A stretch of DNA of 64,000 nt from Gemmatimonadales bacterium (GCA_035500495.1 DATJXC010000073.1:4841-68840); one strand, 5' to 3'. Counted from the stretch's first letter, positions 4,963 to 63,119 are shown. The notes: generated from the letters alone by a model not told the origin. Numbers and translations: made by a program.

Positions 4963-5064
4963 TGCCTGCACTCCTCAAGCAATCTGTAGAAACTGCGCCA
5001 GACAAAGAGGCGGAAATATAGTCAGCGCAAAAACTTGGCGGCAAGGCGAGTGCTCCCTGGCGAA

Positions 5065-5093
5065 TTGACACGGGCGCCCGGCAGCCGTAAGCT
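5065..5093 (+). promoter_or_regulatory. sigma-70 promoter for the crp cluster
   Basis: TTGACA-N17-TAAGCT; AGGAG RBS follows before GTG 5139. Confidence 0.8.
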
Positions 5094-5138
5094 TGCCACG
5101 GAACCTACGATCCACCGCCCACTTAGGAGACTGCCCGC

Positions 5139-5810
5139 GTGCCGGCGGAGGCCACGCTCAACAACGTGCCGCTGTTCAGTCAACTGACCCCTTCCGACCT
5201 CCAGCGAGTGGAAGAGCTGGCCCGCGAGCGGGTGTACCCCAAGAACTCGGTCATCTTGTTCGAGGACGACCCTGGGGACGCCCTGTACGTGGTCAAACAG
5301 GGTCAGGTCAAGGTGGTCCTGATCGGCGAGGATGGGCGCGAGGTCATTCTCTCGGTGCTGGGAGAAGGCCAGTTCTTCGGGGAAATGGCGCTCCTGGACG
5401 ACGAGCCCCGCTCCGCCCACGTGATCGCCATGGAAGACTCGACGCTCGTAGTCCTGCGACGGGAGGACTTCCAGGGGATTCTGGGCCAAAGTCCCGCCCT
5501 GGCCCTGGCCCTGCTGCGGGAACTCACTCGCCGGCTACGCCGCGCCGATGAAAAGGTGGGCAGTCTCGTCCTGCTGGACGTCAACGGCCGCGTCGCCCGC
5601 ATGCTGCTGGACATGGCGGACGAAGAGGGGGGCGACCGCATCACCCGACGGCTCACGCACCACACCATCGCCCAAATGATCGGGTCGTCCCGTGAGACCG
5701 TGAGCCGGACGATGCGAGAGCTCTCCGACAAGGGCTTCATCGACGTCACCCGCAAGGACATCGTGTTGCGGGACCGGCCGGGCCTCGAGGCCGCAGCCGG
5801 CCGGTCGTGA
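5139..5810 (+). CDS. crp: Crp/Fnr family transcriptional regulator
   Basis: cNMP-binding domain FFGEMALL..PRSA; HTH SSRETVSR. Confidence 0.92.
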   Translation: MPAEATLNNVPLFSQLTPSDLQRVEELARERVYPKNSVILFEDDPGDALYVVKQGQVKVVLIGEDGREVILSVLGEGQFFGEMALLDDEPRSAHVIAMEDSTLVVLRREDFQGILGQSPALALALLRELTRRLRRADEKVGSLVLLDVNGRVARMLLDMADEEGGDRITRRLTHHTIAQMIGSSRETVSRTMRELSDKGFIDVTRKDIVLRDRPGLEAAAGRS

Positions 5811-5821
5811 CCCGAGTCACA
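5806..5821 (+). promoter_or_regulatory. Putative CRP box overlapping the crp stop codon
   Basis: CGTGA-cccgag-TCACA, 9/10 match to TGTGA-N6-TCACA; TAACTT candidate -10 at 5867-5872. Confidence 0.55.
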
Positions 5822-5887
5822 CTCCGGTCGTGAGGCGGCGTCTGGTGATAGATGCCCATCGTGGCGTAACTTAGCTCAGGACACGGC

Positions 5888-6769
5888 GTGCCCGAACGGA
5901 TGGCCTACACGGTGACCTTCTGGGGGAGTCGGGGCTCAATCCCGACACCCGGAGCCCACACCGCGCGCTACGGCGGGAACACGCCGTGTGTCGCAGTGGA
6001 GGGCGCCGGGCAGCTCGTGATTCTCGATGCCGGCACCGGGATTCGCGGCCTCGGTCTGCTCCTCGCGGAACGACAGAACGGCGCGGTCAACGCGGAAATT
6101 CTGCTGTCGCACACGCACTGGGACCACATCCAGGGGCTGCCGCATTTCAAGCCCTTCTTCACCAAGGGCAACGTGGTCCGGATCTGGGGAGCCAAGCAGG
6201 GACGGACGTCGCTCGAAACCATTCTGCACCTGCAGATGGATCCCGCGGTGTTCCCGGTGCCGCTCTCCGCCGTGGCCGCCGAGCTGTCGGTGCGGGAAGT
6301 GGCGAGTGACGACGGTGAGTTCGAGGTCGGGCCGTTCCGGGTGCGCACGATGCCGCTCCGCCACCCAGGGACGACGCTGGCCTACCGGCTGACGCCGGTC
6401 GCCGGCGGGGCGAGCATGGCGTACGTGACGGATAACGAGCTCGGGCCGGGCGGTAACTACGAGGTCCCCGCCGGCTGGCGCGGCTCGCTGGTGAAGTTTT
6501 TGTCGGGAGTGGAGCTGTTGGTGCACGACGCGATGTACACCGGCCAGGAGCTGGAGACGCACCGGGGCTGGGGCCACTCCTCGATCGACGAAGCGGTGGC
6601 GCTCGCCGCGGAGGCGGGCGTGCGCCGGCTCGTACTGTTCCATCACGAGCCGGAACATGACGATCGGATAATGGACGGGCTGGTGGCGGACGCTTGCGCG
6701 GAAGCGAAGCGCCGCCGTGGCCCTCAAGAAGTGTTGGCGGCCCAGGACGGGCTGCGACTGACTCTCTGA
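5888..6769 (+). CDS. MBL-fold metallo-hydrolase (possible phosphodiesterase)
   Basis: GSRGSIP..GGNT, LDAGTG, SHTHWDHIQG (HxHxDH), LFHH; start may be ATG 5900. Confidence 0.85.
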   Translation: MPERMAYTVTFWGSRGSIPTPGAHTARYGGNTPCVAVEGAGQLVILDAGTGIRGLGLLLAERQNGAVNAEILLSHTHWDHIQGLPHFKPFFTKGNVVRIWGAKQGRTSLETILHLQMDPAVFPVPLSAVAAELSVREVASDDGEFEVGPFRVRTMPLRHPGTTLAYRLTPVAGGASMAYVTDNELGPGGNYEVPAGWRGSLVKFLSGVELLVHDAMYTGQELETHRGWGHSSIDEAVALAAEAGVRRLVLFHHEPEHDDRIMDGLVADACAEAKRRRGPQEVLAAQDGLRLTL

Positions 6770-6781
6770 CAGGAGTACCCT

Positions 6782-7486
6782 ATGCGCGCGCGTCTTCCCC
6801 TCGTCCTCTTTGGCCTGCTCGCCCTGGCCGGTGTCGCCAGTGTTGCCGCCCAGGGAGGCGGATCGGACACCCGGCCGGGCCTCGCCGTATTCGCGTTCGA
6901 CAACGGTGGCTCTTACGGCGCGGACAAGGAGGACTACGACGCGCTGCAACGCGGATTCGCCGGCATGCTGATCGCCGAATTGGCCGCGAATCCGGCGCTG
7001 CGCCTGGTGGAGCGGGATAACGTCCAGAAGCTGCTGGATGAGCAGAACCTCGCCGCTTCCGGTCGCGTGGACGCTCAAACCGCGGCGAAGGTCGGCAAGC
7101 TCGTGGGGGCCCGCTACGCGATCGTCGGCGACTTCGTCGAGCTCTCCGGCCAGTTCAACGTATCAGCACGCGTGGTCAACGTCGAAACCAGCGAGATCAT
7201 GAAGGTCGCGAGCGAACGGAACACCCGCGACCACTTGTTCGACATCGTGCGCGCGCTCGCCGCGGACCTGAACAAGCAGATGAACTTCCCGGCCCTGCCC
7301 AAACAGGTATCGGAACAGCGGATGAGCCGGGAGGTGCCGACCGAGGCGCTGACCTACTACAGCCGGGCGCTCCTCTACCAGGACCGTGGGCAGCGGGACA
7401 AGGCGATCGAGTACTACAACAAGGCGCTGACGGCTTTCCCGCAGTACACGGAGGCGTCGGAGGGCTTGAAGCGCCTGCAAGGCTGA
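6782..7486 (+). CDS. Exported CsgG/HfaB (TolB-N-like) domain protein with C-terminal TPR
   Basis: Sec signal; AVFAFDN...LRLVER..VQKLLDEQ..A.K.GKLVGA..AIVG; C-terminal A..YY.KAL...P.Y TPR pattern. Confidence 0.75.
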   Translation: MRARLPLVLFGLLALAGVASVAAQGGGSDTRPGLAVFAFDNGGSYGADKEDYDALQRGFAGMLIAELAANPALRLVERDNVQKLLDEQNLAASGRVDAQTAAKVGKLVGARYAIVGDFVELSGQFNVSARVVNVETSEIMKVASERNTRDHLFDIVRALAADLNKQMNFPALPKQVSEQRMSREVPTEALTYYSRALLYQDRGQRDKAIEYYNKALTAFPQYTEASEGLKRLQG

Positions 7487-7496
7487 CGGCGAGGCA

Positions 7497-8276
7497 GTGA
7501 ACGTCGTCACCCGACTCGGCGCAGCGACGGCGCGCCGGCTCTCCCGTTTGGGGGCGCTGGCGCGCTTCGGCTTTGGCGCCGTGCGGGCGGGGCTCACGCT
7601 GCCGCGCGCCGGGCGCGCGGTCGCGGTCCGGGTCACGATCAACCAGGTGCGGTTCACCGCGGTGAACGCGGTCGGCCTGATCCTGCTGCTGTCGAGCATC
7701 CTGTCGTTCCTCGTCATCTCCCAGGCGGTCCGCCAGCTCGGCCAGCTGGGCGTGACGGACCTGATCGGGACCCTGATGGTGGTCGCGATCGTGCGCGAGC
7801 TGGGCCCGCTCATCACCGCCCTCGCCGTAGCCGGGCGGTCGGGAACGGCGATCGCGGCGGAGCTGGCCACGAACAAGGTGATGGGCGAAGTCCGCGCTCT
7901 TGAAGCGATGGGCATCGATCCGCAGCAGTACCTGGTGGTGCCGCGGTTTCTGGGCGCCCTGATCAGCGTTTTCGCCTTGCTCGTGTTGTTCGACGTGGTG
8001 GCCATCGCCGCCGGATTCGCGGCCGCCAGCTTGAACGGGATGACCGGCGCCCGCTATTCCGAGATCGTGCTGCAACAGCTCTCGCTCATCGACGTCTGGC
8101 TGACCGTCGCCAAGGCCGCGGCGTTCGGCGTGATCGTCGGTCTCGTCCCCAGCTACTTCGGCCTGTCGGTGCGCCGCGCGCCCACCGAGGTACCGATCGC
8201 CGTCAGCCGGGCCACGGTGGTGCAGATCGTGGGGATCTTCGTCGCGTCGGCGCTGTTCGCGGCCGTGACACGGTGA
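7497..8276 (+). CDS. mlaE: MlaE-family ABC transporter permease
   Basis: VRELGPLITALAVAGRSGTAIAAEL..NKV..EV.ALEAMGIDP..YLVVPR. Confidence 0.92.
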   Translation: MNVVTRLGAATARRLSRLGALARFGFGAVRAGLTLPRAGRAVAVRVTINQVRFTAVNAVGLILLLSSILSFLVISQAVRQLGQLGVTDLIGTLMVVAIVRELGPLITALAVAGRSGTAIAAELATNKVMGEVRALEAMGIDPQQYLVVPRFLGALISVFALLVLFDVVAIAAGFAAASLNGMTGARYSEIVLQQLSLIDVWLTVAKAAAFGVIVGLVPSYFGLSVRRAPTEVPIAVSRATVVQIVGIFVASALFAAVTR

Positions 8277-8280
8277 TGCC

Positions 8281-8979
8281 GTGAGCACACCGCCCGCGCC
8301 TCAAGGCCCTCCGCTTTCGTTCGAGGACGTGCCGCTGTCGCCGCGCCACGCGCGGCCGCTGACCCTCGAAGTGCCGGAGCACGAAACGGTCGCGGTGCTG
8401 GGCGATGAGGACTCGGGGGTGAATGCCCTCGGCGGCTACGCGCTCGCACTCGAGGCGCCGCGCGGCGGGCGGATCCGCGTGTACGGGACGGCCCTGGAGG
8501 ACCTCCCGGAACACGAACGCTTGGCCTTCCGGCGCCGCGTGGGCTACCTTCCCGCCGGCGACGCCCTGCTGCAAAATCTCTCACTGCGGGACAACGTGGC
8601 GTTACCGCTGCGGTTCGGGAGCGGCCTCCCCGGCCGGGAAATCGACGGGCGGGTGAACGTGATGCTCGCGGCGGTCCGGCTCACGGAGCTGGCGAAACTC
8701 CGCCCGGCGCAGGTAAACGAGGAAGGGCGCCGGCGGGCTGGGTTTGCCCGTGCCATGGCCTTTGACCCGGCACTGTTGATCCTGGAGCAGCCGTTCGACG
8801 GCATCACCTCACGGGCCGCGGCCGAGCTGCTCGAGATCGCCCGGGGTGGAGAGACCGCGAGCGGGGCGCGGCGGACGATTCTCCTGACCGGCCAGGAGCT
8901 GCCGCCGCTGTTGTTGCGGCGCGCGGATCGCGTATACCGTCTCTCGCGCACAGGGGCGCTGGAGCTGGAGACGGCCTGA
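8281..8979 (+). CDS. MlaF-like ABC ATP-binding-fold protein with degenerate catalytic motifs
   Basis: ABC fold recognisable (L..NL.LRDNVALPL, RAMAFDP.LLIL) but Walker A, Q-loop, signature, Walker B and H-loop are all substituted. Confidence 0.8.
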   Translation: MSTPPAPQGPPLSFEDVPLSPRHARPLTLEVPEHETVAVLGDEDSGVNALGGYALALEAPRGGRIRVYGTALEDLPEHERLAFRRRVGYLPAGDALLQNLSLRDNVALPLRFGSGLPGREIDGRVNVMLAAVRLTELAKLRPAQVNEEGRRRAGFARAMAFDPALLILEQPFDGITSRAAAELLEIARGGETASGARRTILLTGQELPPLLLRRADRVYRLSRTGALELETA

Positions 8980-8990
8980 CTCGAGGCAGC

Positions 8991-9959
8991 GTGGACACCA
9001 CTCGCCAGGACTTCATCGTCGGCCTGCTGATCGTCACCGCCATCGCGGTCGTGGTGGGGGCGCTCCTCGCGACCAGCGGCTGGGGCGAGCGGCGCTACGA
9101 TCTCTACTTGCGCGCGGCGAACGCCGAAGGCCTGACCATCGACTCCCGAGTGCTGCTCCAGGGCCTGGAAGTGGGACGGGTGGTGAACGTCTCGCCGCGC
9201 GTGGATTCGATGACCCGGCACGTCTCGTTCATCGCCCGCCTCAAGGTCATCGAGCGATTCAGCGGCGGCGCGAACCTGCGCCTGCCGGTGGGGACATCGG
9301 CCCAGCTCGAGCAAGCCAACCAGCTCTCGCCCAACGTCCTCGTACGGCTGGTGCTCCCGGACACCGTGCGGCGGGGGGCGGGCAACGCCATGCTCGTCGC
9401 CGGCGACACCATCGACTCGGAGCGGAAGGCGCCGGTGTTGAACGAAGTGGCCGACGTCGCGACGCGCCTCTCGACGGAGGTGACCGACGTCCTCCACGCC
9501 GCGCACCAGACGCTGCTCGCCGTGCAGAGCACGCTGCGCCAGGCGAACACGACCATCGCCGACCTGCGCCCCGACGTGCGCCGGACCCTGGCCAACGTGG
9601 CCTCGACCATGGACCGGATCAATACCCTGGTGGCCCGCGTCGACCCGGGGCTCGCCGACACCGTGTCCCGGGCGGTCGTGCTCTCGACCCGCACCCTGGC
9701 CCGCCTCGACTCGCTGATCGCGAACGCGAACGCGATGACGGTGGAGAACCGCCAGGACATCCGCGGCACGATGCAGAACATCGACCATCTGACGCTGCAG
9801 CTCAATCACCTCGCCGAAGAAATGTCGCGGCGTCCCTATCGGTTTCTCACGGGCGTGAAGCCGCTCAGCTTCGACACCAATCCTCCTCCCGGGGCTTCGA
9901 CCGTCCACGCGGACTCGGTCCGCGCCTCGGCCGTGGCCAAAGACAGCACGCACCCGTGA
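8991..9959 (+). CDS. mlaD: MlaD/MCE-domain protein with long helical C-terminal tail
   Basis: N-terminal TM, A.GL...S.V..QGLEVG.V MCE motif, heptad-rich C-terminal half. Confidence 0.85.
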   Translation: MDTTRQDFIVGLLIVTAIAVVVGALLATSGWGERRYDLYLRAANAEGLTIDSRVLLQGLEVGRVVNVSPRVDSMTRHVSFIARLKVIERFSGGANLRLPVGTSAQLEQANQLSPNVLVRLVLPDTVRRGAGNAMLVAGDTIDSERKAPVLNEVADVATRLSTEVTDVLHAAHQTLLAVQSTLRQANTTIADLRPDVRRTLANVASTMDRINTLVARVDPGLADTVSRAVVLSTRTLARLDSLIANANAMTVENRQDIRGTMQNIDHLTLQLNHLAEEMSRRPYRFLTGVKPLSFDTNPPPGASTVHADSVRASAVAKDSTHP

Positions 9960-11896
9960 GCTACCTCCTGCTGCACCCGGAGACCTGGTCGCCCGGCACC
10001 CTGGCGCCCGCTCTCGCGTCGGCACGGGTCGAGACGCGCGTCGTGCGGAAACGCGAGGAGCTGGCTCCGGCCGATCACCCGACCGTCCTGTTGCTGGACG
10101 TGAGCGGACGGGCGCAGTTCCCGACGGAGCTGCTGCGGGCGTTCGTCGACGCGGGCGGCGCCATCGTCGCCCTGGCCCGGCCGGAGGAGTCAGACGTGCC
10201 CGACGACCTCCCCACCGAGCTGTTGACGGGGTTCATCCCGGCTAATGGCGGCACCCGGCAGCTGCTCGTGGCACTGCGCTCGGGGTACCGCGAGGCCGCC
10301 GCCCGTCAGGAGACGGCCCGGGCCCGCAATGAGGCCGCGCTCCGCAGTCGCGAGATCGGTGAGCTGACGCGCATCGGCGTCGCCCTCGGGACCGAGCGGG
10401 ACCTGGACACGCTGCTCGGTCTCATCCTGTCGCTGGCCCGCGACGTCACCCAATCGGATGCCGGCAGCCTCTACCTCGTGGAGCAACCCGAAGGGGGTAG
10501 CGGGAGCAAGCGCCTGAGCTTCCGGTTGGCCCAGAATCTCTCCAAACCTGACGTGCCGTTCGTCCAATTCACGATCCCGATGGACCGGACGAGCATCGCC
10601 GGGTACGCCGCGACGACGGGTGAGCCTCTCGTCCACGACGACGCGTATTTCCTGCCCCCCGATGTCGAGTACTCCATCAACCGGTCGTTCGACGAGCGCT
10701 ACGGGTATCGCACCAAGTCGATGCTGGTCATCCCGATGAAGGATCATAAGGACGACGTCATCGGCGTGCTGCAGCTGATCAACCGCAAGCGCGATACGCA
10801 AGCGATCCTCGCCACGCCGGCGGACGTCGACGCGCAGGTCGTGCCCTACTCGAAGCGCACGGTTGAGCTCGTTACGGCGCTCGCTGGCCAGGCGGGAGTG
10901 GCGATCGAGAACAGCAAGCTGTACGAGCAGATCGAGAAGATGTTCGAGAAGTTCGTGAACGCCGCCGTGCTCGCGATCGAGCAGCGCGACCCCACCACCT
11001 ACGGTCACAGCGGTCGCGTGGCGGGCTACACCGTCGGCCTGGCGCAAGTGGTGGACCGCGTTGCCGACGGCCCCCACCGCGGCACCAAGTTCACCAGGGA
11101 GCAGATCCGCGAGATCAAGTACGCGGGCCTGCTGCACGACTTCGGCAAAGTCGGCGTGCGGGAGCAGGTACTCGTCAAGGCCAAAAAGCTCTATCCGATG
11201 GACCTCACGGTGATCCGGCAGCGGCACGCGTTCGTGCGCCGCACCCTGGAGCGGGACTTCTGGCGCCAGCGGGCGGAGTTCCTCGAGGCGAAGGGTAAGG
11301 ATGGCTATGCCGCGTTCATCGGGCGCCTCGAGACGGACCAGCAACGCGAGCTGGCGGAGCTCGATCGCTTTCTCGAGATGGTGCTCCAGGCGAACGAGCC
11401 GAGCCTGTTGCCGGCCGAGCACGCGCAGGGTCTCACCGACTTCGCCCAGCGGACGTACGTGAATCTCGAAGGGGAGCCGCAGCCCCTCTTGAACCCCGAC
11501 GAGGTGCGGTTCCTGACGATTCCGAAGGGGAGTCTCGATGAATCCGAGCGACTCGAGATCGAGAGTCACGTCACCCACACTTTCAACTTCCTCCAGCAGA
11601 TTCCGTGGACCCCGGAGCTGGCGCATATCCCGTTGATCGCGTTCGGGCACCATGAAAAGCTGGACGGCAGCGGGTATCCCAAGCACAAGCGGGCGACCGA
11701 GATCCCGATTCAAACGCGGATGATGACGATCTCGGACATCTATGACGCCCTGACCGCCCAAGACCGCCCCTATAAGCGGGCCGTCCCGCCCACCCGGGCC
11801 CTCGACATCATGTCCTCTGAAGTGCAGCGCGGGCAGCTCGATGCCGACCTGTTCAAGGTCTTCGTCGACGCCAGGGTCTTCGAGGCGCCCGCCTAG
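9956..11896 (+). CDS. GAF + HD-GYP cyclic dinucleotide phosphodiesterase with degenerate REC-like N-terminus
   Basis: GAF (SIAGY, KSMLVIPM, GVLQLIN); EQRDPTTYGHS, LLHDFGK, HHEKLDGSGYP, DIYDALT..DRPYK; helical insertion splits the HD domain. Confidence 0.9.
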   Translation: MSYLLLHPETWSPGTLAPALASARVETRVVRKREELAPADHPTVLLLDVSGRAQFPTELLRAFVDAGGAIVALARPEESDVPDDLPTELLTGFIPANGGTRQLLVALRSGYREAAARQETARARNEAALRSREIGELTRIGVALGTERDLDTLLGLILSLARDVTQSDAGSLYLVEQPEGGSGSKRLSFRLAQNLSKPDVPFVQFTIPMDRTSIAGYAATTGEPLVHDDAYFLPPDVEYSINRSFDERYGYRTKSMLVIPMKDHKDDVIGVLQLINRKRDTQAILATPADVDAQVVPYSKRTVELVTALAGQAGVAIENSKLYEQIEKMFEKFVNAAVLAIEQRDPTTYGHSGRVAGYTVGLAQVVDRVADGPHRGTKFTREQIREIKYAGLLHDFGKVGVREQVLVKAKKLYPMDLTVIRQRHAFVRRTLERDFWRQRAEFLEAKGKDGYAAFIGRLETDQQRELAELDRFLEMVLQANEPSLLPAEHAQGLTDFAQRTYVNLEGEPQPLLNPDEVRFLTIPKGSLDESERLEIESHVTHTFNFLQQIPWTPELAHIPLIAFGHHEKLDGSGYPKHKRATEIPIQTRMMTISDIYDALTAQDRPYKRAVPPTRALDIMSSEVQRGQLDADLFKVFVDARVFEAPA

Positions 11897-11910: not shown

Positions 11911-13788
11911 ATGAACCGCCGCGACTTCGTCCTGAGTACCGCTGCGCTGGCCACCCTGCCCCGCTGGCTGCGGCTCGCCCCGTCTGCCGGTCCGCTCCGC
12001 GTCCGACCGTTCGACCTGCGATCGGTGCGACTGCGCCCCGGGCCGTTCCTCGATGCGCTCCAGGTGAATCGCCGCTTTCTGATGGGGCTCGATCCAGACC
12101 GGCTGCTGCACATGTTCCGTCTCACCGCCGGGCTCCCTTCCACCGCCGAGCCACTGGGCGGGTGGGAGGCACCGGACAACGAGCTGCGCGGGCACTTTAC
12201 GGGACACTATCTCTCGGCCGGCGCCCTCCTGTCCGCCAGCCTGGACGATCCCGAGGTTCGCGCGCGAGTCGACCTGATGGTGGCCGAGCTCGCCAAGTGC
12301 CAGCAGGCGCTCGGCACGGGATACCTCTCCGCCTTCCCGGAAGAGCTGTTCGACCGGTTGCGGGACGGGAGGCCGGTGTGGGCTCCTTTCTATACGCTCC
12401 ACAAGATTCTCGCCGGGCTACTGGACGCCCACACCATCGGCGGCAACGTCCAGGCCTTGGACGTCGCGACTCGGCTCGCGCGCTGGACGGCGCGCTGGGT
12501 GCAGCCGCTGGGTGACGCGGCCATGGCGCGGGTCCTGGAGCGCGAATTCGGCGGGATGAACGAGGCGCTTTACAATCTGGCCGCCATCACCGGTGAGCCG
12601 GCGTGGCGCGATCTGGCGCACCGCTTCGACCACGAGCGCATCTTCGGCCCCTTGGCAGACGGGCGCGATGAGCTGAAGGGCCTGCACGTCAATACCACGA
12701 TCCCGAAGATCATCGGCGCGGCCCGACGCTACGAGGTGACGGGCGACGAGCGGGCCCGGCGCGTGGCGGAGTACTTCTGGCGCGAAGTCACTACCCGGCG
12801 GGCCTTCTGCACCGGGGGGACGAGCAACGGCGAAAGTTGGAACGCCGACCCCGGGATCATCGCCGGCGAGCTTTCGGCCTACACCCAGGAATGCTGCACC
12901 AGCTACAACATGCTGAAGCTCACCCGCCACCTGCTGCAATGGACCACGGACCCCAGAGTGGCGGACTACTACGAGCGCCTGCTCTGGAACGGCGTGCTGG
13001 GCGCGCAGCACCCGGCAGATGGGTCGAAGCTCTACTACGTCCCGCTGGCGAGCGGGTACTGGAAGCTGTTCGGCACTCCGCTGCACGACTTCTGGTGCTG
13101 CACCGGGACCGGGAGCGAGTCGTTCGCGAAGTTCGGCGACAGCATCTACTTCCACGATGCTGGCGGGCTGTACGTCAACCAGTTCATCGCGTCGGAGCTC
13201 GATTGGGCGGACCGGGGAGTGCGCCTGATTCAGGACACCCGGTTTCCGGAAGTCGGGAGCACGACCATCACTGTGCGCACCTCGCGATCGGTCCGCTTCG
13301 CCTTGCGCTTGCGGATCCCCGAGTGGGCGGGCGACGGAGGGTCGGCGGCCCTGAATGGCCGCACCCTCGAAGGATTCGCGGCCTCGGGGAGCTACTTCGT
13401 GCTCACGCGTAGCTGGAAGGACGGGGACCGGGTGGAGTTGACCCTGCCGCTGACTCTTCAGGTCGAGCCGACACCTGACGATCCCTCGCTCCAAGCCGTG
13501 ACCTACGGCCCGCTCGTTCTGATCGGCCGCCTGGGCGCCGCCGGGCTGACGCCCGAGCACCTGCGCGCGGAGCCGACCAAACCGCGCACCGTCCCCGAAT
13601 TCAAGCTCGAGCCCGTCGCCGCTCCCGCGCTCCGCATGCCCGCGCAAGGCGTCACCGCCCTCATCCAGGCCGTCCCGGAACGACCGCTGGAGTTCCGGAC
13701 CGTGGGGCAGAGCCAGGACGTGACCCTCGTTCCCTTCTACCGGCTGTTCGACGAGCGGTACGCGGTCTACTGGAAGGTCGTTACCTAG
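11911..13788 (+). CDS. Tat-exported GH127/GH146 beta-L-arabinofuranosidase-like glycoside hydrolase (DUF1680)
   Basis: MNRRDFV Tat motif; GHFTGHYLSA, E.GGMNE, QECCTSYNMLK, FWCCTGTG.E. Confidence 0.88.
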   Translation: MNRRDFVLSTAALATLPRWLRLAPSAGPLRVRPFDLRSVRLRPGPFLDALQVNRRFLMGLDPDRLLHMFRLTAGLPSTAEPLGGWEAPDNELRGHFTGHYLSAGALLSASLDDPEVRARVDLMVAELAKCQQALGTGYLSAFPEELFDRLRDGRPVWAPFYTLHKILAGLLDAHTIGGNVQALDVATRLARWTARWVQPLGDAAMARVLEREFGGMNEALYNLAAITGEPAWRDLAHRFDHERIFGPLADGRDELKGLHVNTTIPKIIGAARRYEVTGDERARRVAEYFWREVTTRRAFCTGGTSNGESWNADPGIIAGELSAYTQECCTSYNMLKLTRHLLQWTTDPRVADYYERLLWNGVLGAQHPADGSKLYYVPLASGYWKLFGTPLHDFWCCTGTGSESFAKFGDSIYFHDAGGLYVNQFIASELDWADRGVRLIQDTRFPEVGSTTITVRTSRSVRFALRLRIPEWAGDGGSAALNGRTLEGFAASGSYFVLTRSWKDGDRVELTLPLTLQVEPTPDDPSLQAVTYGPLVLIGRLGAAGLTPEHLRAEPTKPRTVPEFKLEPVAAPALRMPAQGVTALIQAVPERPLEFRTVGQSQDVTLVPFYRLFDERYAVYWKVVT

Positions 13789-27943: not shown

Positions 27944-29435
27944 ACTTGTCATACGTGTCGATCTGCGCCCGCTGCAGCGTCCCCGAGAAGTCCACGTACA
28001 GCGTCTTGGTCTCGGAATAGAAGTGGTAGACCTCCCATCCACCTTCGCGGTGCCCGTTCCCGGTCTGCTTGACACCGCCGAAGGGCATGTGCGCTTCGGC
28101 GCCGATCGTGGGCGCGTTGATGTAGGTGATCCCGTTGTCGAGCTCGTTCATCGCCCGGAACGCCCCGTTCACGTCCCGGGTGTACAGCGATGACGACAAA
28201 CCGTATTGGACGTCGTTGTTGACCCGAATGGCCTCGTCCAGGGAGCCCACCTTGATCACCGACAGCACGGGCCCGAAGATCTCCTCCTGTTCCACCCGCA
28301 TCCCCGGACGCACCCCGGCGAGCACGGTGGGGCGATAAAACCAGCCTCGTTCGAGGCCCTTCCCTGTCGCCGCCTTGCCGCCGATCGCGACCGTCGCCCC
28401 TTCTTTGGCGCCGATCCCGACGTACTTCTCGACGTTCTGTCGCGAAGATTCGTGGATCAGCGGACCGACCTCGGTTTCGGGTTCGAGGCCTGGGCCGAGC
28501 CGCAGGGTGTCCGCCCGGTCGCAGAGCATCTTCAAGAACTTGTCGTGGATGCCGTCCTGGAGGATGAGGCGGCTCGTGGCGGTGCACCGCTGCCCGGTGG
28601 TCCCGAACGCGCCCCACAGGACGCCGTCCAAGGCCAGGTCGAGATCGGCGTCGTTCATCACGATCATGGCGTTCTTGCCGCCCATCTCGAGCGACAGGCG
28701 TTTATGCATCTTGCCGCAAGTGGCCCCGATGATGGAACCGACCTCGGTGGAGCCGGTGAACGAGATCACCGGCACATCGGGATCCTCGACGAGGGCCCGC
28801 CCCACCACCGAACCCTGGCCGTGCACCAGCTGCACCACCTCCGGTGGCAACCCCGCCTCGAGCAGCACCTCCACCAACCAGTGCCCGCTATGCGGGACGT
28901 CCTCGGCGGGCTTGAAGACCACCGAGTTCCCGCACAGGAGTGCGGGGAACATCTTCCAGGTGGGAATGGCGAGCGGGAAATTGAACGGGGTGATCAAGCC
29001 GCACACGCCGATCGGCCGCCGCATCGACATCGCCCACTTGTTGCGGAGCTCCGAGGGCGCCACATATCCGAACAGGCGACGGCCTTCGGTGGCCGCGTAG
29101 AAAGCCGTGTCGATGCCCTCCTGCACGTCGCCACGCGTTTCCGCCAGGACCTTGCCCATCTCGCGCGTCATCGCCCGGGCGATCGTTTCCTTTTTCTCGA
29201 GCAGCAGCTCGCCGACCCGGCGCAGCACGTCGCCCCGCAGGGGCGCGGGTGTGCGCGACCAGACCGTGAAGCCCCGTTTGGCGGACGCGATCGCCCACCG
29301 CACGTCGTCGGCGCCCGACCGGGGGAACCGACCGATGACGTCGTTGCAATCCGCCGGGTTGCGGTTCTCGAAGTACTCACCCGTTGCGGGAGCGACCCAC
29401 TCGCCCCCGATGAAGTTCTTGAACGTTTCAGTCAT
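27942..29435 (-). CDS. Aldehyde dehydrogenase family protein
   Basis: ITPFNFP, FTGSTEVG, LEMGGKNA, GQRCTA, EEIFGP. Confidence 0.95.
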   Translation of the reverse strand: MTETFKNFIGGEWVAPATGEYFENRNPADCNDVIGRFPRSGADDVRWAIASAKRGFTVWSRTPAPLRGDVLRRVGELLLEKKETIARAMTREMGKVLAETRGDVQEGIDTAFYAATEGRRLFGYVAPSELRNKWAMSMRRPIGVCGLITPFNFPLAIPTWKMFPALLCGNSVVFKPAEDVPHSGHWLVEVLLEAGLPPEVVQLVHGQGSVVGRALVEDPDVPVISFTGSTEVGSIIGATCGKMHKRLSLEMGGKNAMIVMNDADLDLALDGVLWGAFGTTGQRCTATSRLILQDGIHDKFLKMLCDRADTLRLGPGLEPETEVGPLIHESSRQNVEKYVGIGAKEGATVAIGGKAATGKGLERGWFYRPTVLAGVRPGMRVEQEEIFGPVLSVIKVGSLDEAIRVNNDVQYGLSSSLYTRDVNGAFRAMNELDNGITYINAPTIGAEAHMPFGGVKQTGNGHREGGWEVYHFYSETKTLYVDFSGTLQRAQIDTYDK

Positions 29436-42700: not shown

Positions 42701-45700
42701 GGCGTGACCTTCGCGGTCGCGACGGGGGGCGGCAGCGTCACGGGCGGCAGTACCACGACCAACGCGAGCGGGATCGCGACCGTCGGCAGCTGGACCCTGG
42801 GCACCACCGCGGGGACGAACACCCTCACCGCCACCTCCGGCAGCCTCACCGGCTCGCCCGTGACTTTCACCGCCACCGGCACCGCCGGCGGCGCGACGCA
42901 GGTCGCGCTCAACGCCGGTGACGGCCAGACCGCCGCTGTGGGAAGCGCCGTCGCCCTCCCGCCCTCGGTGATCGTCAAAGACGCGTTCAATAACCCGGTT
43001 TCGGGCGTGAACGTAACCTTCGCCGTTGTCACGGGCGGCGGCAGCGTCACAGGCGGGAGCGCCACCACCAACGCGGGCGGGATCGCGACGGTCGGCAGCT
43101 GGACTCTCGGCACGACGGCCGGGAGCAACACATTGAACGCCACCTCCGGTAGCCTGTCCGGTTCGCCGATTACCTTTACGGCGACGGCCACCGCGGGTGG
43201 CGCGACCCAGATCGTGCTGAACGCCGGGAACAACCAGTCGGCGACGGTCGGCACCGCAGTCACGATCCCACCGTCGGTGATCGTCAAGGACGCGTTCAAT
43301 AATCCCGTATCCGGGGTGAGCGTGACCTTCGGCGTCGCCACGGGCGGCGGCAGTCTCACAGGCGGCAGCGCCACGAGCAACGCGAGCGGGATCGCGACCG
43401 TCGGCAGCTGGACCCTGGGCACCACCGCGGGGACGAACACTCTCACCGCCACCTCCGGCAGCCTCACCGGGTCGCCCATCACCTTCACCGCTACGGGCAC
43501 CGCCAGCGGCGCGACGCAGATCGCGCTCAACGCCGGGAACAACCAGAGCGCGACGGTGGGGACCGCGGTGGCCGTGGCCCCATCCGTGATGGTGAAGGAC
43601 CAGTTCAACAACCCGGTGTCCGGAGTGTCGGTGACCTTCGCGGTCGCCACGGGGGGCGGCAGCGTCACGGGCGGTAGTGCCACGACCAATGCGAGCGGGA
43701 TCGCGACGGTCGGCAGCTGGACCCTTGGCACAACGGCCGGCAGCAATTCCCTGACGGCCACGTCCGGCAGCCTCACCGGCTCCCCGATCACCTTCACCGC
43801 CACCGGGACGGCCGGCGCCGCGACGCAGATGGCGCTGAATGCCGGGAACGGACAGGCGGCGACCGTGAACACGGCGGTCGCGGTGGCACCCTCGGTGATC
43901 GTGAAGGACCAGTTCAACAACCCGGTGTCGGGAGTCGGCGTGACCTTCGCGGTCGCGACGGGGGGCGGGAGCGTCACGGGCGGGGCGACGACGACGAACG
44001 CGAGCGGGATCGCGACGGTCGGCAGCTGGAGGCTCGGCACCGCGGCGGGAAGCAATTCGCTCACCGCCACGTCCGGGAGCCTGAACGGCTCGCCGGTCAC
44101 CTTCACCGCTACCGGGACCGCCGGCGGCGCGTCCCAGATCGCCACCTTCGCCGGCGACAGTCAGAGCGCGATCGTCGGCACGGTGGTCGGCGTCCCCCCC
44201 GCCGTCATCGTCAAGGACCAGTTCGGCAATCCGGTGGCGGGGGTTGCGGTGACCTTCGCGGTGGCCTCCGGAGGCGGCAGCATCACCGGAGCGAGCCCCA
44301 GCTCGAACGCGAGCGGCGTGGCTACGGTGGGCAGCTGGACCCTGGGTGCCGTCGCTGGCAAGAACACCCTGACCGCCACCTCGAGCGGCCTCACCGGGTC
44401 GCCGCTCACCTTCACGGCGACCGGCCTTGCGAGCGCCGCGACGACGATGGCCGCGGTGAGCGGCACGGGCCAGACCGACACGATCGGCGCGACCCTCGCC
44501 TCGCCCTACGTCGTGATCGTCACCGACGGGGTGAATCCGGTCTCCGGGGTCCCGGTCACCTGGGCCGTGGTTTCGGGCGGGGGATCGCTCACGGCGGTGG
44601 TCGCGACGACCGACGTGAACGGCCACTCCAGCGCGAAGCAGATCCTCGGGCTCGCGGGCGGCGCCCAGGCGGTCACGGCCTCGGTGGGCGGTCTCACGGG
44701 GTCGCCCGTGACGTTCACCTCCACGGCCACGCACGGGAACGCCGCGAGCATCGCCCTGAAGGACGGTTCCGCGCAGAGCGACACCATCGGCGCCACGCTG
44801 GCCAATCCCTACCGCGTCACCGTGAGCGATCGCGGCGGGAATCCCGTGCCGGGCGTCACCGTCAGTTGGGCGGTCAATTCGGGCGGCGGCTCGATCACGG
44901 CCTCCTCGAGCAGCGACGCGAGCGGCATCGCCACCGCAACCCGCACCCTCGGCACGACAGTCGGGGTCACCGCTGACCAGGCCACGGCCACGGGGCTCGC
45001 CGGGTCGCCGGTCGCGTTCAGCGCCACCATCACGAACGGGCAGGCGAAGACGATCGCGCTCACAGGCGGGAACGCGCAGACCGACACCGTCGGCAAGACG
45101 CTGCCCGTGCCCTACACCGTCACCATCACAGACCGCGGCGGCAATCCGGTTTCGGGCTACACCGTCACCTGGGCCGTGACCTCCGGTGGCGGCTCGATTA
45201 CGCCCACCTCCATCTCCAACGCCGCCGGCGTCGCGAGCGCCTCCCGGACGCTGGGGCCGACGGCCGGCGCGCAGACCGCGACGGCGAGTGGCACGGGGCT
45301 CACGGGATCACCGGTAACGTTCACGGCGACGGGTGTGAACGGCGCGGCGGCGACTATCGCCCTTTCGGCCGGAAACGCGCAGACCGATACCATCGGCGCC
45401 ACGCTCGCCACGCCCTACAGCGTGCTCGTTACCGATGCCGGGAGCAATCCCGTGGCCGGGGTGACCGTCACGTGGGCGGCGACGGGCAGCGTTGGGTCGA
45501 TCACGCCGTCCTCGATCACCAACGCGAGCGGCATTGCGACCGCCACGCGCGTTCTTGGTAGCCCGCTTGGCGCCCAAACGGCAACCGCCACCGTGACCGG
45601 GCTCACCGGCTCTCCGGTGACCTTCACCGCCACCGCGACAGCCGGGAACGCGAAGACGATCGCCCTGAACGGCGGCAACACCCAGACCGATACCATCGGG

Positions 45701-61445: not shown

Positions 61446-63119
61446 GTGCGACTCGTGATCCTCGTGGCATCCCTCACGTCGCTCGGCAGCTCCGCCGCGG
61501 CGGCCCAGAACCCACGCGCATTCAGCCACGCGGATACGCTGCGCGGCTCCCTGACCGCTCCGGCCAGAACGTGGTGGGACGTCACGTTCTACGATCTGCA
61601 TGTCGCGATCACCCCGGCCGATTCGAGCATCCGTGGCTGGAACGGCATCACCTACCGCGTCCTTACCCCATCTGCCGAGATGCAGATCGACCTGATGGTG
61701 CCCCTGGACGTCGATAGCATGATCCAGGACGGCGCGCGCGTCCAGTACCGGCGCGACGGGAATGCTTTCTTTGCCGAGCTCACCGCCGCCCAACCAAAGG
61801 GCGCGGTGAAGACCATCACCGTCTATTACCACGGGCATCCCCAACCGGCCAAACGGCCGCCCTGGGACGGCGGTTTCACCTGGACCACGGACAGCCTCGG
61901 CCGGCCCTGGATCGTGACGACCGACCAGGATCTGGGCGCGTCCGTCTGGTGGCCCGACAAAGACACCCAGGCCGACGAGCCCGACAGCCAGCGCATCGCC
62001 CTGACCGTCCCCGATCCGTTGATCGACGCGTCGAACGGACGGTTGCGTAACACGACTCACAACCCGGACGGCACGACGACCTACGAGTGGTTCGTCGTGA
62101 ACCCGATCAATAACTACGCCGTCGCGGTCGGGGCCGGTTCCTACACCCATTTCAGCGACACGCTGCAGGGGGAGCGCGGTCCGCTCACCATGGACTTCTG
62201 GCCGCTCGATTACCACCTCGACGCCGCCAAACGCCAGTTCGCCCAGGCGAAGTCGATGCTGCACTGCTTCGAGCACTGGTTCGGGCCCTACCCCTGGTAC
62301 GAGGATGGCTACAAGCTGGTCGAGGTCCCGCATCCCGGCATGGAGCACCAGAGCGCCGTGGCGTATGGGAACTACTACGCCAACGGCTACCGGGGCCGGG
62401 ACGCCTCGGGCACGGGGCTCGGCATGAAGTGGGACTTCATCATCGTGCACGAGAGCGCCCACGAATGGTTCGGCAACAACATCACGGCCAAGGATGAAGC
62501 CGATATCTGGGTGCACGAGAGCTTCGCGAATTATGCCGAGAATCTCTACACGGAGTGCCTGTTCGGCCGGGACTCGGGCGCCGCGTACGTCATCGGCACC
62601 CGGCGCGGCATCCGCAACGACATCCCGATCGAGGGACCGTTCGGCGTCAACGCCGACGGCTCCGGAGACCGTTACCCCAAGGGCGGTAACCTGCTGCATA
62701 CGATCCGGCAGATCGTGGGCGACGACGAGAAGTGGCGCGGCATCCTGCGCGGCTTGAACCAGACCTTCTGGCACCAGACGGTGACGGGGGCGCAGATCGA
62801 AGCCTACATTTCAGAGCACGCCGGCACTGACCTCACCAAAGTGTTCGATCAGTACCTGCGGACCACCAAGATCCCGGTGCTCGAGTACAAGACCGAGGGG
62901 TCAACCCTCAGTTTTCGCTGGACCAATGTGGTGCCGGGGTTCGCCATGCCCGTGAAGGTGACGCTCAGCGATGGACAGTTCAGCCTGATCCATCCCAGCG
63001 AAGCATGGCAAACGACCGGGGTGCAGCTCTCGAATCCCGCCTCGTTCAAGGTGGACCCGAATTATTACGTGACCACGCACAACGGCGCCGTGGCCGACTC
63101 GACGGCACCGGGTAAGTGA
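61446..63119 (+). CDS. Exported M1 family Zn aminopeptidase
   Basis: Signal peptide from GTG 61446; GMEHQ (GxMEN-like), HESAHEWFGN (HExxH), downstream E in HESF. Confidence 0.9.
   Translation: MRLVILVASLTSLGSSAAAAQNPRAFSHADTLRGSLTAPARTWWDVTFYDLHVAITPADSSIRGWNGITYRVLTPSAEMQIDLMVPLDVDSMIQDGARVQYRRDGNAFFAELTAAQPKGAVKTITVYYHGHPQPAKRPPWDGGFTWTTDSLGRPWIVTTDQDLGASVWWPDKDTQADEPDSQRIALTVPDPLIDASNGRLRNTTHNPDGTTTYEWFVVNPINNYAVAVGAGSYTHFSDTLQGERGPLTMDFWPLDYHLDAAKRQFAQAKSMLHCFEHWFGPYPWYEDGYKLVEVPHPGMEHQSAVAYGNYYANGYRGRDASGTGLGMKWDFIIVHESAHEWFGNNITAKDEADIWVHESFANYAENLYTECLFGRDSGAAYVIGTRRGIRNDIPIEGPFGVNADGSGDRYPKGGNLLHTIRQIVGDDEKWRGILRGLNQTFWHQTVTGAQIEAYISEHAGTDLTKVFDQYLRTTKIPVLEYKTEGSTLSFRWTNVVPGFAMPVKVTLSDGQFSLIHPSEAWQTTGVQLSNPASFKVDPNYYVTTHNGAVADSTAPGK

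Follow-up and report, generated by a model that had tools for sequence, protein, structure and literature searches.

The region described here lies in a 64,000-nt stretch of DNA (hereafter, the window) from a Gemmatimonadales bacterium, whose source is a wetland metagenome-assembled genome (MAG) of 3.36 Mb that is 98.7% complete; the stretch has been recovered in three wetland DNA runs. Positions 5139-11896 hold seven co-directional genes, all on the plus strand, which have been identified with Pfam, NCBIfam and reading of the sequence. They encode a Crp-family transcription factor, a metallo-β-lactamase-fold (MBL) enzyme, an exported protein with TolB-N and TPR-like domains, an MCE module composed of MlaE, an MlaF-like protein and MlaD, and a GAF-HD-GYP enzyme. 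Pfam returns all seven of the genes listed in a preliminary interpretation made from the DNA alone (the sequence-only reading), and the gaps of at most 12 nt which it reported from the MBL gene onwards are read out as 12, 10, 4 and 11 nt; the last junction is no gap, as mlaD and the HD-GYP gene share 4 nt (GTGA). One component, the MlaF-like protein, has lost the motifs of the ATP site and yet is maintained under selection; the MCE machine is thus probably independent of ATP and linked to signalling.

The MCE module, formed by mlaE (7497-8276), the mlaF-like gene (8281-8979) and mlaD (8991-9959), exhibits the composition of an MlaEFD core, with a permease (Pfam MlaE, 181.8 bits) and an MCE protein (Pfam MlaD, 28.5 bits; cut-off 25.1) encoded around a nucleotide-binding subunit, and the E-F-D order is found in 20 loci. 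This permease is a divergent one, the third MlaE paralogue of the genome; the other two copies score ~231 bits each, versus 181.8 for the one in the cluster. In MlaD (322 residues), a transmembrane helix at the N-terminus precedes a single MCE domain, and the C-terminal region is long and helical. The protein matches the NCBIfam model Mtu_fam_mce with 43.8 bits over residues 9-277, its tail shows weak matches to helical families, and its gene is the least conserved of the cluster (30-36% identity between the two bacterial families that carry it).

The MlaF-like protein is a member of the ATP-binding cassette (ABC) nucleotide-binding-domain family (Pfam ABC_tran, 39.2 bits; cut-off 25), and its score against the NCBIfam MlaF model (60.1 bits) falls far under the cut-off of 441. 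Its motifs were analysed by aligning the window protein and 20 orthologues to the two canonical MlaF paralogues encoded elsewhere in the same genome. The Walker A motif, GPSGVGKS and GFSGSGKS in the paralogues, is replaced by GDEDSGVN in the window protein (8401-8424) and by G[DE]ExSG[VI]x in the orthologues, with loss of the phosphate-binding Lys. The ABC signature, LSGGM in the paralogues, reads VNEEG in the window and [AV]NEE[EDG] in the orthologues, and the Walker B motif (LLYDEPT in the paralogues) has become LLILEQP and hhhE[QAL]PF, respectively, so that the Asp-Glu pair containing the catalytic Glu is gone. The same applies to the H-loop His (VTHD or THD in the paralogues versus LTGQ in the window and T[GAS][QR] in the orthologues), and the Q-loop Gln is mostly missing too. 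Because the Walker A and signature motifs are both lost, no canonical ATP site can be formed in any dimer containing this protein, and the best reading of the alignment is that it would be unable to bind or hydrolyse ATP. As judged from these motifs, the only nucleotide-binding subunit of the operon would not sustain transport driven by ATP hydrolysis. An atypical MCE complex had been suspected from the outset, and the absence of every ATP-site motif in the MlaF-like protein, which makes the complex non-canonical, bears this out. The possibility that the protein binds a cyclic nucleotide instead of ATP has been set aside, since the acidic P-loop GDEDSG argues against the binding of any phosphate.

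The replacement residues at the ATP-site motifs are themselves kept between both families. In addition, pairwise ratios of nonsynonymous to synonymous substitution rates (dN/dS) of 0.10-0.37 have been obtained for this gene, similar to those of the neighbouring genes (~0.2 for all three MCE genes), and its frame is open in 42 of the 43 genomes in which it has been found, at 47-72% identity. Both the conservation of the replacement residues and the low dN/dS indicate that the MlaF-like protein is a selected pseudo-enzyme, not a decaying gene, and it will be referred to as pseudo-MlaF. The family is narrow: a search of 1.84 billion representatives gives only ~10 clusters (50% identity) at E<1e-30. 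Its next relatives are MlaF-like proteins (P0137, P0141, P0147, P0152 and P0157) in which the Walker A Lys is intact, with an altered signature (LSPAE, LSVSQ or LNEGE), an altered Walker B motif (LDDP, LEDP, or VDRFFEG in P0147 and P0157) and an H-loop that is altered as well. They are encoded in mlaE-mlaF-long-mlaD triplets on unrelated metagenomic contigs with no signalling genes (L059:2255-5798, L062:4185-7667). Erosion of the ATP site in MCE systems may be graded and wider than this clade. A gene of ~260-310 codons without family assignment follows the triplets of these relatives. The literature searches returned no description of a degenerate MlaF or of an MCE pseudo-ATPase; with respect to the literature searched, an MlaE/MCE system in which selection maintains a nucleotide-binding subunit devoid of every ATP-site motif is new.

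Conservation of the gene order was examined by fetching ~18 kb around 20 orthologues of pseudo-MlaF, from two Gemmatimonadales families (f1 and f3). All seven genes recur in an identical order and with tight spacing in 20/20 loci, with protein identities that go down to 30-60%, and the gene order given in the sequence-only reading thus holds across both families. The neighbours rpmE and prfA are likewise syntenic in these loci and, as these are housekeeping genes, gene order alone represents weak functional evidence; the operon-like packing adds support beyond order alone. In a sample of 301 genomes of the phylum, the pseudo-ATPase gene was found in 43, located ~1 kb upstream of an HD-GYP orthologue and on the same strand in all of them (43/43). 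Orthologues are separated by a clean gap from ordinary ABC ATPases (E values of 1e-44 or better versus 1e-20 or worse). The carriers are the genus of the window, other genera of family f1 and all sampled members of family f3, and the gene is absent from the sampled genomes of a third family (f2). The HD-GYP orthologue is more widespread, being present in 119 of the 301 genomes, 76 of which lack the MCE module. A single-protein scan of genome contigs yielded one true orthologue of pseudo-MlaF, from a Gemmatimonadales MAG, the remainder being ordinary ABC proteins, and identified no cultured carrier. A word-indexed protein search retrieved close Gemmatimonadales relatives only, annotated as 'MlaF' or as 'ATP-binding cassette domain-containing protein'.

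Five genomes without the pseudo-ATPase encode crp, the MBL enzyme, the TolB-N/TPR protein and the GAF-HD-GYP enzyme beside rpmE and prfA, and lack precisely the three MCE genes. Traces of the module have also been found: a 20-residue remnant of the MlaE N-terminus persists at the junction in G098 (L054); only residues 71-299 of MlaD remain, directly after the TolB-N/TPR gene, in G168 (L072); and mlaE and pseudo-mlaF are each split over two reading frames in G182 (L073), which could be true decay or an assembly error. In a tree of the HD-GYP proteins, the MCE-bearing loci fall in one clade that comprises f1 and f3 and has a support of 93/93. Nested within this clade are at least four lineages in which the module is missing or reduced to a remnant, and all the outgroups (f2, f4, f7, f8 and f10) lack the module. 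According to these data, the simplest history would be that mlaE-pseudo-mlaF-mlaD is an optional insert with one gain and at least three to four losses. The MCE genes had been taken at first as an integral part of the signalling cluster; this has to be abandoned in favour of a three-gene insert that was gained once and lost several times.

The core formed by crp and the MBL, TolB-N/TPR and HD-GYP genes is older than the insert and persists without it, and the MBL gene remains a neighbour of the HD-GYP gene outside the seven-gene order (L063, L065 and L068). Two other families of the same class, f7 and f4, have genes for a caspase-domain/DUF4384 protein and for a class III nucleotidyl cyclase with a CHASE2 domain between those of the two enzymes (L064:1931-9669, L069:2068-10006), and a divergent gene for a cNMP (cyclic nucleoside monophosphate)-binding SpoIIE-type phosphatase takes the place of crp. 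An open reading frame (ORF) of ~400 codons with no Pfam match lies just before the HD-GYP gene in these families. The unit that remains stable therefore comprises a cNMP-binding regulator, the MBL enzyme and the GAF-HD-GYP enzyme, with a variable slot between both enzymes for envelope-associated modules. Because the sister families carry a cyclase and a cNMP-binding phosphatase, there is a link between the cluster and cyclic mononucleotide signalling that does not depend on Crp. The cyclic-nucleotide context originally proposed for the locus is supported both by the CHASE2 cyclase that these families carry between the two enzymes and by the cNMP-binding cassette that Crp keeps. The genome of the window encodes one class III cyclase, a cytoplasmic FHA-GAF-cyclase located on another contig (G000:C133 ~76660-78625; L076:5664-7625), which is the likely source of the cNMP sensed by Crp, as well as nine GGDEF proteins.

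No match to MlaC (PF05494) or MlaA (PF04333) was obtained across the genome, under conditions in which the E. coli and Caulobacter controls were positive. The failure to recognise mlaA or mlaC in the window thus extends genome-wide, although it is not a special feature of this system: MlaEFD-only systems such as that of Veillonella parvula are the ancestral norm, in which a long MlaD bridges the envelope without MlaA or MlaC (PMC10665443).

The gene preceding the module (6782-7486) encodes an exported soluble protein of 234 residues, with a domain similar to TolB-N, LpoB, PelC and the N-terminal part of CsgG followed by a TPR-like helical domain (Pfam CsgG N-terminal part, 52.6 bits, and TPR). 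It holds a cleavable signal peptide and no lipobox Cys. In an AlphaFold2 (AF2) model with a mean pLDDT of 84.1, the N-terminal domain would match TolB, LpoB, PelC and CsgG by Foldseek, and the predicted structure taken as a whole is similar to the CadC periplasmic sensor domain. A CsgG-type channel is not indicated, given that only positions 9-99 of the 210 of the CsgG profile are covered, the Cys is absent, and the fold match to TolB-N, LpoB and PelC is equal or better. This protein had been considered a possible periplasmic partner of the MCE complex. Since its gene is older than the insert, and is kept in clusters that have no MCE genes, the TolB-N/TPR protein does not qualify as an MlaC-like partner dedicated to the module.

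With regard to the two enzymes of the core, the MBL protein (5888-6769; 293 residues; Pfam Lactamase_B_2, 75.6 bits) conserves an HxHxDH motif and the other metal ligands, which are invariant in 21 orthologues. Its AF2 model (pLDDT 86.7) places it closest to an ElaC homologue, YhfI (6KNS), RNase Z, PhnP (3G1P) and the anti-Pycsar cyclic-nucleotide nuclease Apyc1 (7U2S). The predicted fold belongs to the same clade as YhfI, PhnP, RNase Z and Apyc1 (Foldseek E values of 1e-15 to 1e-8), which share the same HxHxDH metal motif set at a sequence identity of merely 13-22%, and a sequence search of solved structures gave only weak matches to RNase Z. The enzyme had been presented as a possible class II cNMP phosphodiesterase. 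This assignment fails the family tests, with no match to Pfam PDEase_II, 46.1 bits against NF041851 (cut-off 400), and no class II enzyme among its top 50 fold matches; what survives of it is that the fold lies within a phosphodiesterase clade. The MBL protein could remove the cNMP that activates Crp or finish the linear dinucleotide produced by the HD-GYP enzyme, and its conserved pairing with the latter is compatible with either role.

The last gene of the operon (9956-11896) encodes a protein of 646 residues with an N-terminal domain of ~145 residues, a GAF domain and an HD-GYP domain carrying an insert of ~115 residues (Pfam GAF, HD and HD_5). The HD_5 score is 101.3 bits, and the residues H351, H394-D395 and HHEKLDGSGYP (565-575) are kept in the alignment to PmGH, the GAF-HD-GYP phosphodiesterase of cyclic di-GMP (c-di-GMP) from Persephonella marina (4MCW). 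PmGH is also its best solved relative (E 3.4e-33), followed by V-cGAP3, specific for 3'3'-cyclic GMP-AMP (cGAMP) (5Z7C). Both PmGH and the protein of the window show a GAF domain followed by an HD-GYP domain with the H...HD...HHExxDGxGYP motifs; in contrast with PmGH, the latter holds the additional N-terminal domain, which has no family match, and the insert in the HD-GYP domain. The solved-structure search relates the GAF domain to the cNMP-binding GAF domains of PDE2, PDE5 and CyaB2. No Pfam family matches the N-terminal 141 residues, and a receiver-like fold considered for this domain is left without sequence support. By similarity to these relatives, the HD-GYP enzyme most likely acts on c-di-GMP or cGAMP. 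No description of a Crp/MBL/GAF-HD-GYP cluster was found in the literature searches and, relative to the literature searched, the fixed placement of a pseudo-ATPase MCE module in a putatively Crp-controlled operon with an HD-GYP enzyme is also new.

The first gene, crp (5139-5810), encodes a cNMP-binding protein of 223 residues (Pfam cNMP_binding, 100.8 bits; HTH_Crp_2, 75.5 bits) that combines a cNMP-binding domain, with the phosphate-binding cassette G81-E82...R91-S92-A93 (FGE...RSA), and a Crp-type helix-turn-helix with the recognition helix RETVSR. Among solved structures, it is closest to the cAMP-binding CRPs of Mycobacterium tuberculosis (Rv3676) and Thermus thermophilus, to GlxR from Corynebacterium glutamicum and to CAP from E. 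coli, with which it shares the pair of domains, the cassette and the RETVxR helix. Unlike these known regulators, it is encoded by a gene whose own stop codon overlaps the predicted operator, and its score against the NCBIfam equivalog of E. coli CRP (127.7 bits) is below the cut-off of 266. Upstream of crp, a promoter can be read at 5065-5093, with a -35 hexamer TTGACA (5065-5070), a 17-nt spacer and a -10 hexamer TAAGCT (5088-5093). In 25 related loci the -35 element is invariant and the -10 element is TAAGCT or TAAACT. Only three of the six positions of TAAGCT agree with the E. coli consensus TATAAT, which is the reason why the promoter is not listed in a generic sigma-70 scan. This element was previously described as a consensus promoter, a term that fits the -35 hexamer and not the -10. 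Nevertheless, since both hexamers are kept in the 25 loci, which is stronger evidence than a consensus match, the promoter looks real.

Transcription of the remaining genes would depend on a second region, located at the end of crp (5807-5833), where a predicted Crp-type operator is formed by the palindrome GTGACCCGAGTCAC (5807-5820), which overlaps the crp stop codon, and a downstream GTGA half-site (5830-5833). The palindrome, of the type GTGA-N6-TCAC and similar to the TGTGA-N6-TCACA operators of known CRPs, lies upstream of a putative promoter and is present in 24 of the 25 loci, the exception carrying one mismatch. The second GTGA appears at +16 from the centre of the palindrome in 24/25 loci, a TAnnnT hexamer at +53 in 22/25 (TAACTT in the window, 5867-5872, a -10-like element of the predicted MBL-operon promoter at fixed spacing from the palindrome), and the MBL start codon at +72 to +79. 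If transcription starts ~7 nt past the hexamer, the full site would be centred near -65 and the half-site near -42, an arrangement reminiscent of class I and class II activator sites in tandem, and the leader would be very short. The window contains five matches to GTGA-N6-TCAC, versus 0.82 expected, and the site at 5807-5820 is the only conserved one. Given that the palindrome is conserved at a fixed spacing upstream of the MBL gene, control of the MBL-to-HD-GYP genes by Crp is a well-motivated prediction, and the initial view of a Crp-led cluster is reinforced by this operator.

Among the other matches in the window, the one at the mlaE start codon (7497-7510) has been discarded as a Crp site and attributed to chance, as it is found in none of the 25 related loci, and three more exact matches (28756-28769, 45593-45606 and 61806-61819) apparently lie within long ORFs. 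In L054 (G098), the genome with the MlaE remnant, 23 bp of the crp-MBL promoter region are missing, and the centre of the palindrome is 30 nt, not 53, from TAACTT; this deletion puts the full site at a class II-like position in the same genome that deleted the MCE genes. In the f3 loci L043-L050, a conserved TGATAAGCT or TGATATGCT is located ~10 nt upstream of the mlaE start, at the junction with the TolB-N/TPR gene. This element looks like the crp -10 hexamer (TAAGCT) plus an extended TG, and might serve the MCE genes of f3 as an internal promoter.

On the other side of the crp promoter, rpmE and prfA are transcribed divergently. A promoter-like sequence for them, TTGCCG-18-TATATT, is found on the minus strand at 5015-5044, and its CTTGGCGGCAAG and AAATATAA elements are kept in most related loci. 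Downstream, a gene for a GH127 beta-L-arabinofuranosidase (11911-13788) starts 14 nt past the HD-GYP stop codon in this genome only, where it may be transcribed by read-through from the operon.

The module resembles two types of known MCE systems and differs from both. With the minimal MlaEFD of V. parvula (PMC10665443) and the MlaFEDB complexes of E. coli and Acinetobacter baumannii, it shares the permease-nucleotide-binding domain-MCE order and an MlaE protein of the same family, and it also coincides with the minimal system in the single MCE domain, the N-terminal anchor, the long C-terminal extension and a genome devoid of MlaA and MlaC. In contrast to those systems, the nucleotide-binding domain has neither the Walker A Lys, nor the LSGGQ signature, the Walker B Asp-Glu, the Q-loop Gln or the H-loop His; moreover, the triplet is included in a putative Crp-controlled operon, between the TolB-N/TPR and HD-GYP genes, and no MlaB is encoded. 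The second likeness is to PqiABC and LetAB, whose MCE proteins form assemblies across the periplasm that probably need no ATP hydrolysis by an ABC subunit. Reportedly, Ekiert et al. in 2017 presented both as MCE systems that have no ABC ATPase. However, PqiA and LetA are unrelated to MlaE, whereas here MlaE and an ABC-fold subunit are kept and the catalytic site alone is gone.

Taking together the gene content and order, the degenerate yet selected ATP-site motifs, the conserved operator with its geometry, and the pattern of gain and loss, the explanation that we favour, with a confidence that stays slightly short of even, is that of a Crp-activated operon for messenger degradation which has acquired an ATP-independent MCE accessory, a conduit or tether in which the dead subunit is structural. 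The locus would consist of two transcription units, with crp expressed from its own conserved promoter. Upon binding of cNMP, Crp would recognise the GTGA-N6-TCAC operator at the crp stop codon and activate the promoter just before the MBL gene, giving one packed mRNA for the MBL, TolB-N/TPR, mlaE, pseudo-mlaF, mlaD and GAF-HD-GYP genes. The old core of this operon would be devoted to the degradation of messengers by the MBL enzyme and the GAF-regulated HD-GYP phosphodiesterase, and the target of the former would be either the Crp-activating cNMP, in a negative feedback, or the linear product of the latter. In the ancestor of the two families, the three-gene module would have been inserted between the TolB-N/TPR and HD-GYP genes, and pseudo-MlaF would have been retained as a structural clamp on MlaE. 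In the resulting MlaE2-pseudoF2-MlaD6 complex, the long helical tail of MlaD would extend across the periplasm and form an ATP-free passive lipid conduit or a tether. Because it would be made only with the Crp signal on, this complex can be regarded as an envelope output of the signalling circuit. Operation without an ABC ATPase is known for the Pqi and Let systems.

Several points weigh against this explanation. Co-transcription and activation by Crp are inferred from the spacing of the genes and the conserved operator, the centre of which would lie ~65 nt upstream of the expected start, versus the textbook position of -61.5. No MlaE-based system that dispenses with ATP hydrolysis was found in the literature searches. 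Mycobacterial Mce complexes are destabilised when the Walker B motif of their shared ATPase, MceG, is mutated (PMC9947336), so that the stabilisation of the permease by a dead subunit is an assumption. Furthermore, the module is dispensable, as it has been lost at least three to four times, and it may be functionally unrelated to its neighbours, since the four-gene core works without a membrane component.

A second explanation, which is possible and we consider unlikely, reverses the direction of the signal, making the MCE module the input and not the output of c-di-GMP signalling. MlaE, pseudo-MlaF and MlaD would have turned into a trans-envelope receptor in which the state of the lipids or the envelope is relayed by the dead nucleotide-binding domain to the GAF-HD-GYP enzyme, perhaps through its N-terminal domain, setting c-di-GMP or cGAMP levels under cNMP-Crp control. 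The purifying selection on the pseudo-ATPase and the conservation of its replacement motifs would be expected of such a receptor, and the 4-nt overlap between the mlaD stop and the HD-GYP start would provide translational coupling. Likewise, the module adjoins the HD-GYP gene in all 43 genomes, the sister families have an extracytoplasmic sensor, the CHASE2 cyclase, in the corresponding position between the MBL and HD-GYP genes, and no other membrane protein of the core could link the periplasmic TolB-N/TPR protein with the cytoplasmic enzymes. However, the contact between the pseudo-ATPase and the HD-GYP enzyme is hypothetical, and the N-terminal domain proposed to receive the signal is kept in clusters that have lost the MCE genes, the orthologues of this enzyme being found in 76 of 119 genomes without the module. 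The adjacency in 43/43 genomes was inherited from a single insertion and counts as one event.

Somewhat more doubtful is a historical accident, in which the MCE triplet landed once in an unrelated operon and is now a redundant, motorless third Mla paralogue in the process of being lost. This would account for the repeated losses, for the remnants and split genes (mlaE in G098, mlaD in G168, mlaE and pseudo-mlaF in G182) and for the coexistence with two other MlaE systems that have canonical ATPases, and the synteny of rpmE and prfA indicates that gene order is generally stable in the clade. Nevertheless, frames that stay open in 42/43 genomes at 47-72% identity and dN/dS values of ~0.2 for all three MCE genes argue against a gene set being discarded, decay would not yield degenerate motifs conserved between families, and the gaps within and flanking the module are tight across both families. 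That the system is still ATP-driven, with the MlaE of the cluster recruiting a canonical MlaF from another mla locus and pseudo-MlaF acting as a regulator or assembly factor, is quite improbable: two canonical MlaF genes are present in the genome, and sharing is established for MceG, the one ATPase that serves several mycobacterial Mce systems (PMC9947336), but pseudo-MlaF occupies the ATPase position of the operon under constraint, dimers containing it have no canonical ATP site, and the MlaE of the cluster is divergent from both canonical copies.

None of the component parts of the favoured arrangement, an ATP-independent MCE accessory in a Crp-activated operon, is of a new kind. The energy source of MCE systems and the direction in which they work are still debated and, to our knowledge, the MlaE-based systems studied to date are all ATP-driven. 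This locus therefore offers a natural test case for the function of MlaE and MlaD without ATP, with a motor devoid of the residues that handle ATP which has been under selection since the two families diverged. The repeated clean losses of the module constitute natural knock-outs for comparison. If the link between the module and its neighbours is functional, it would represent a direct connection between the lipid machinery of the envelope and second-messenger signalling.

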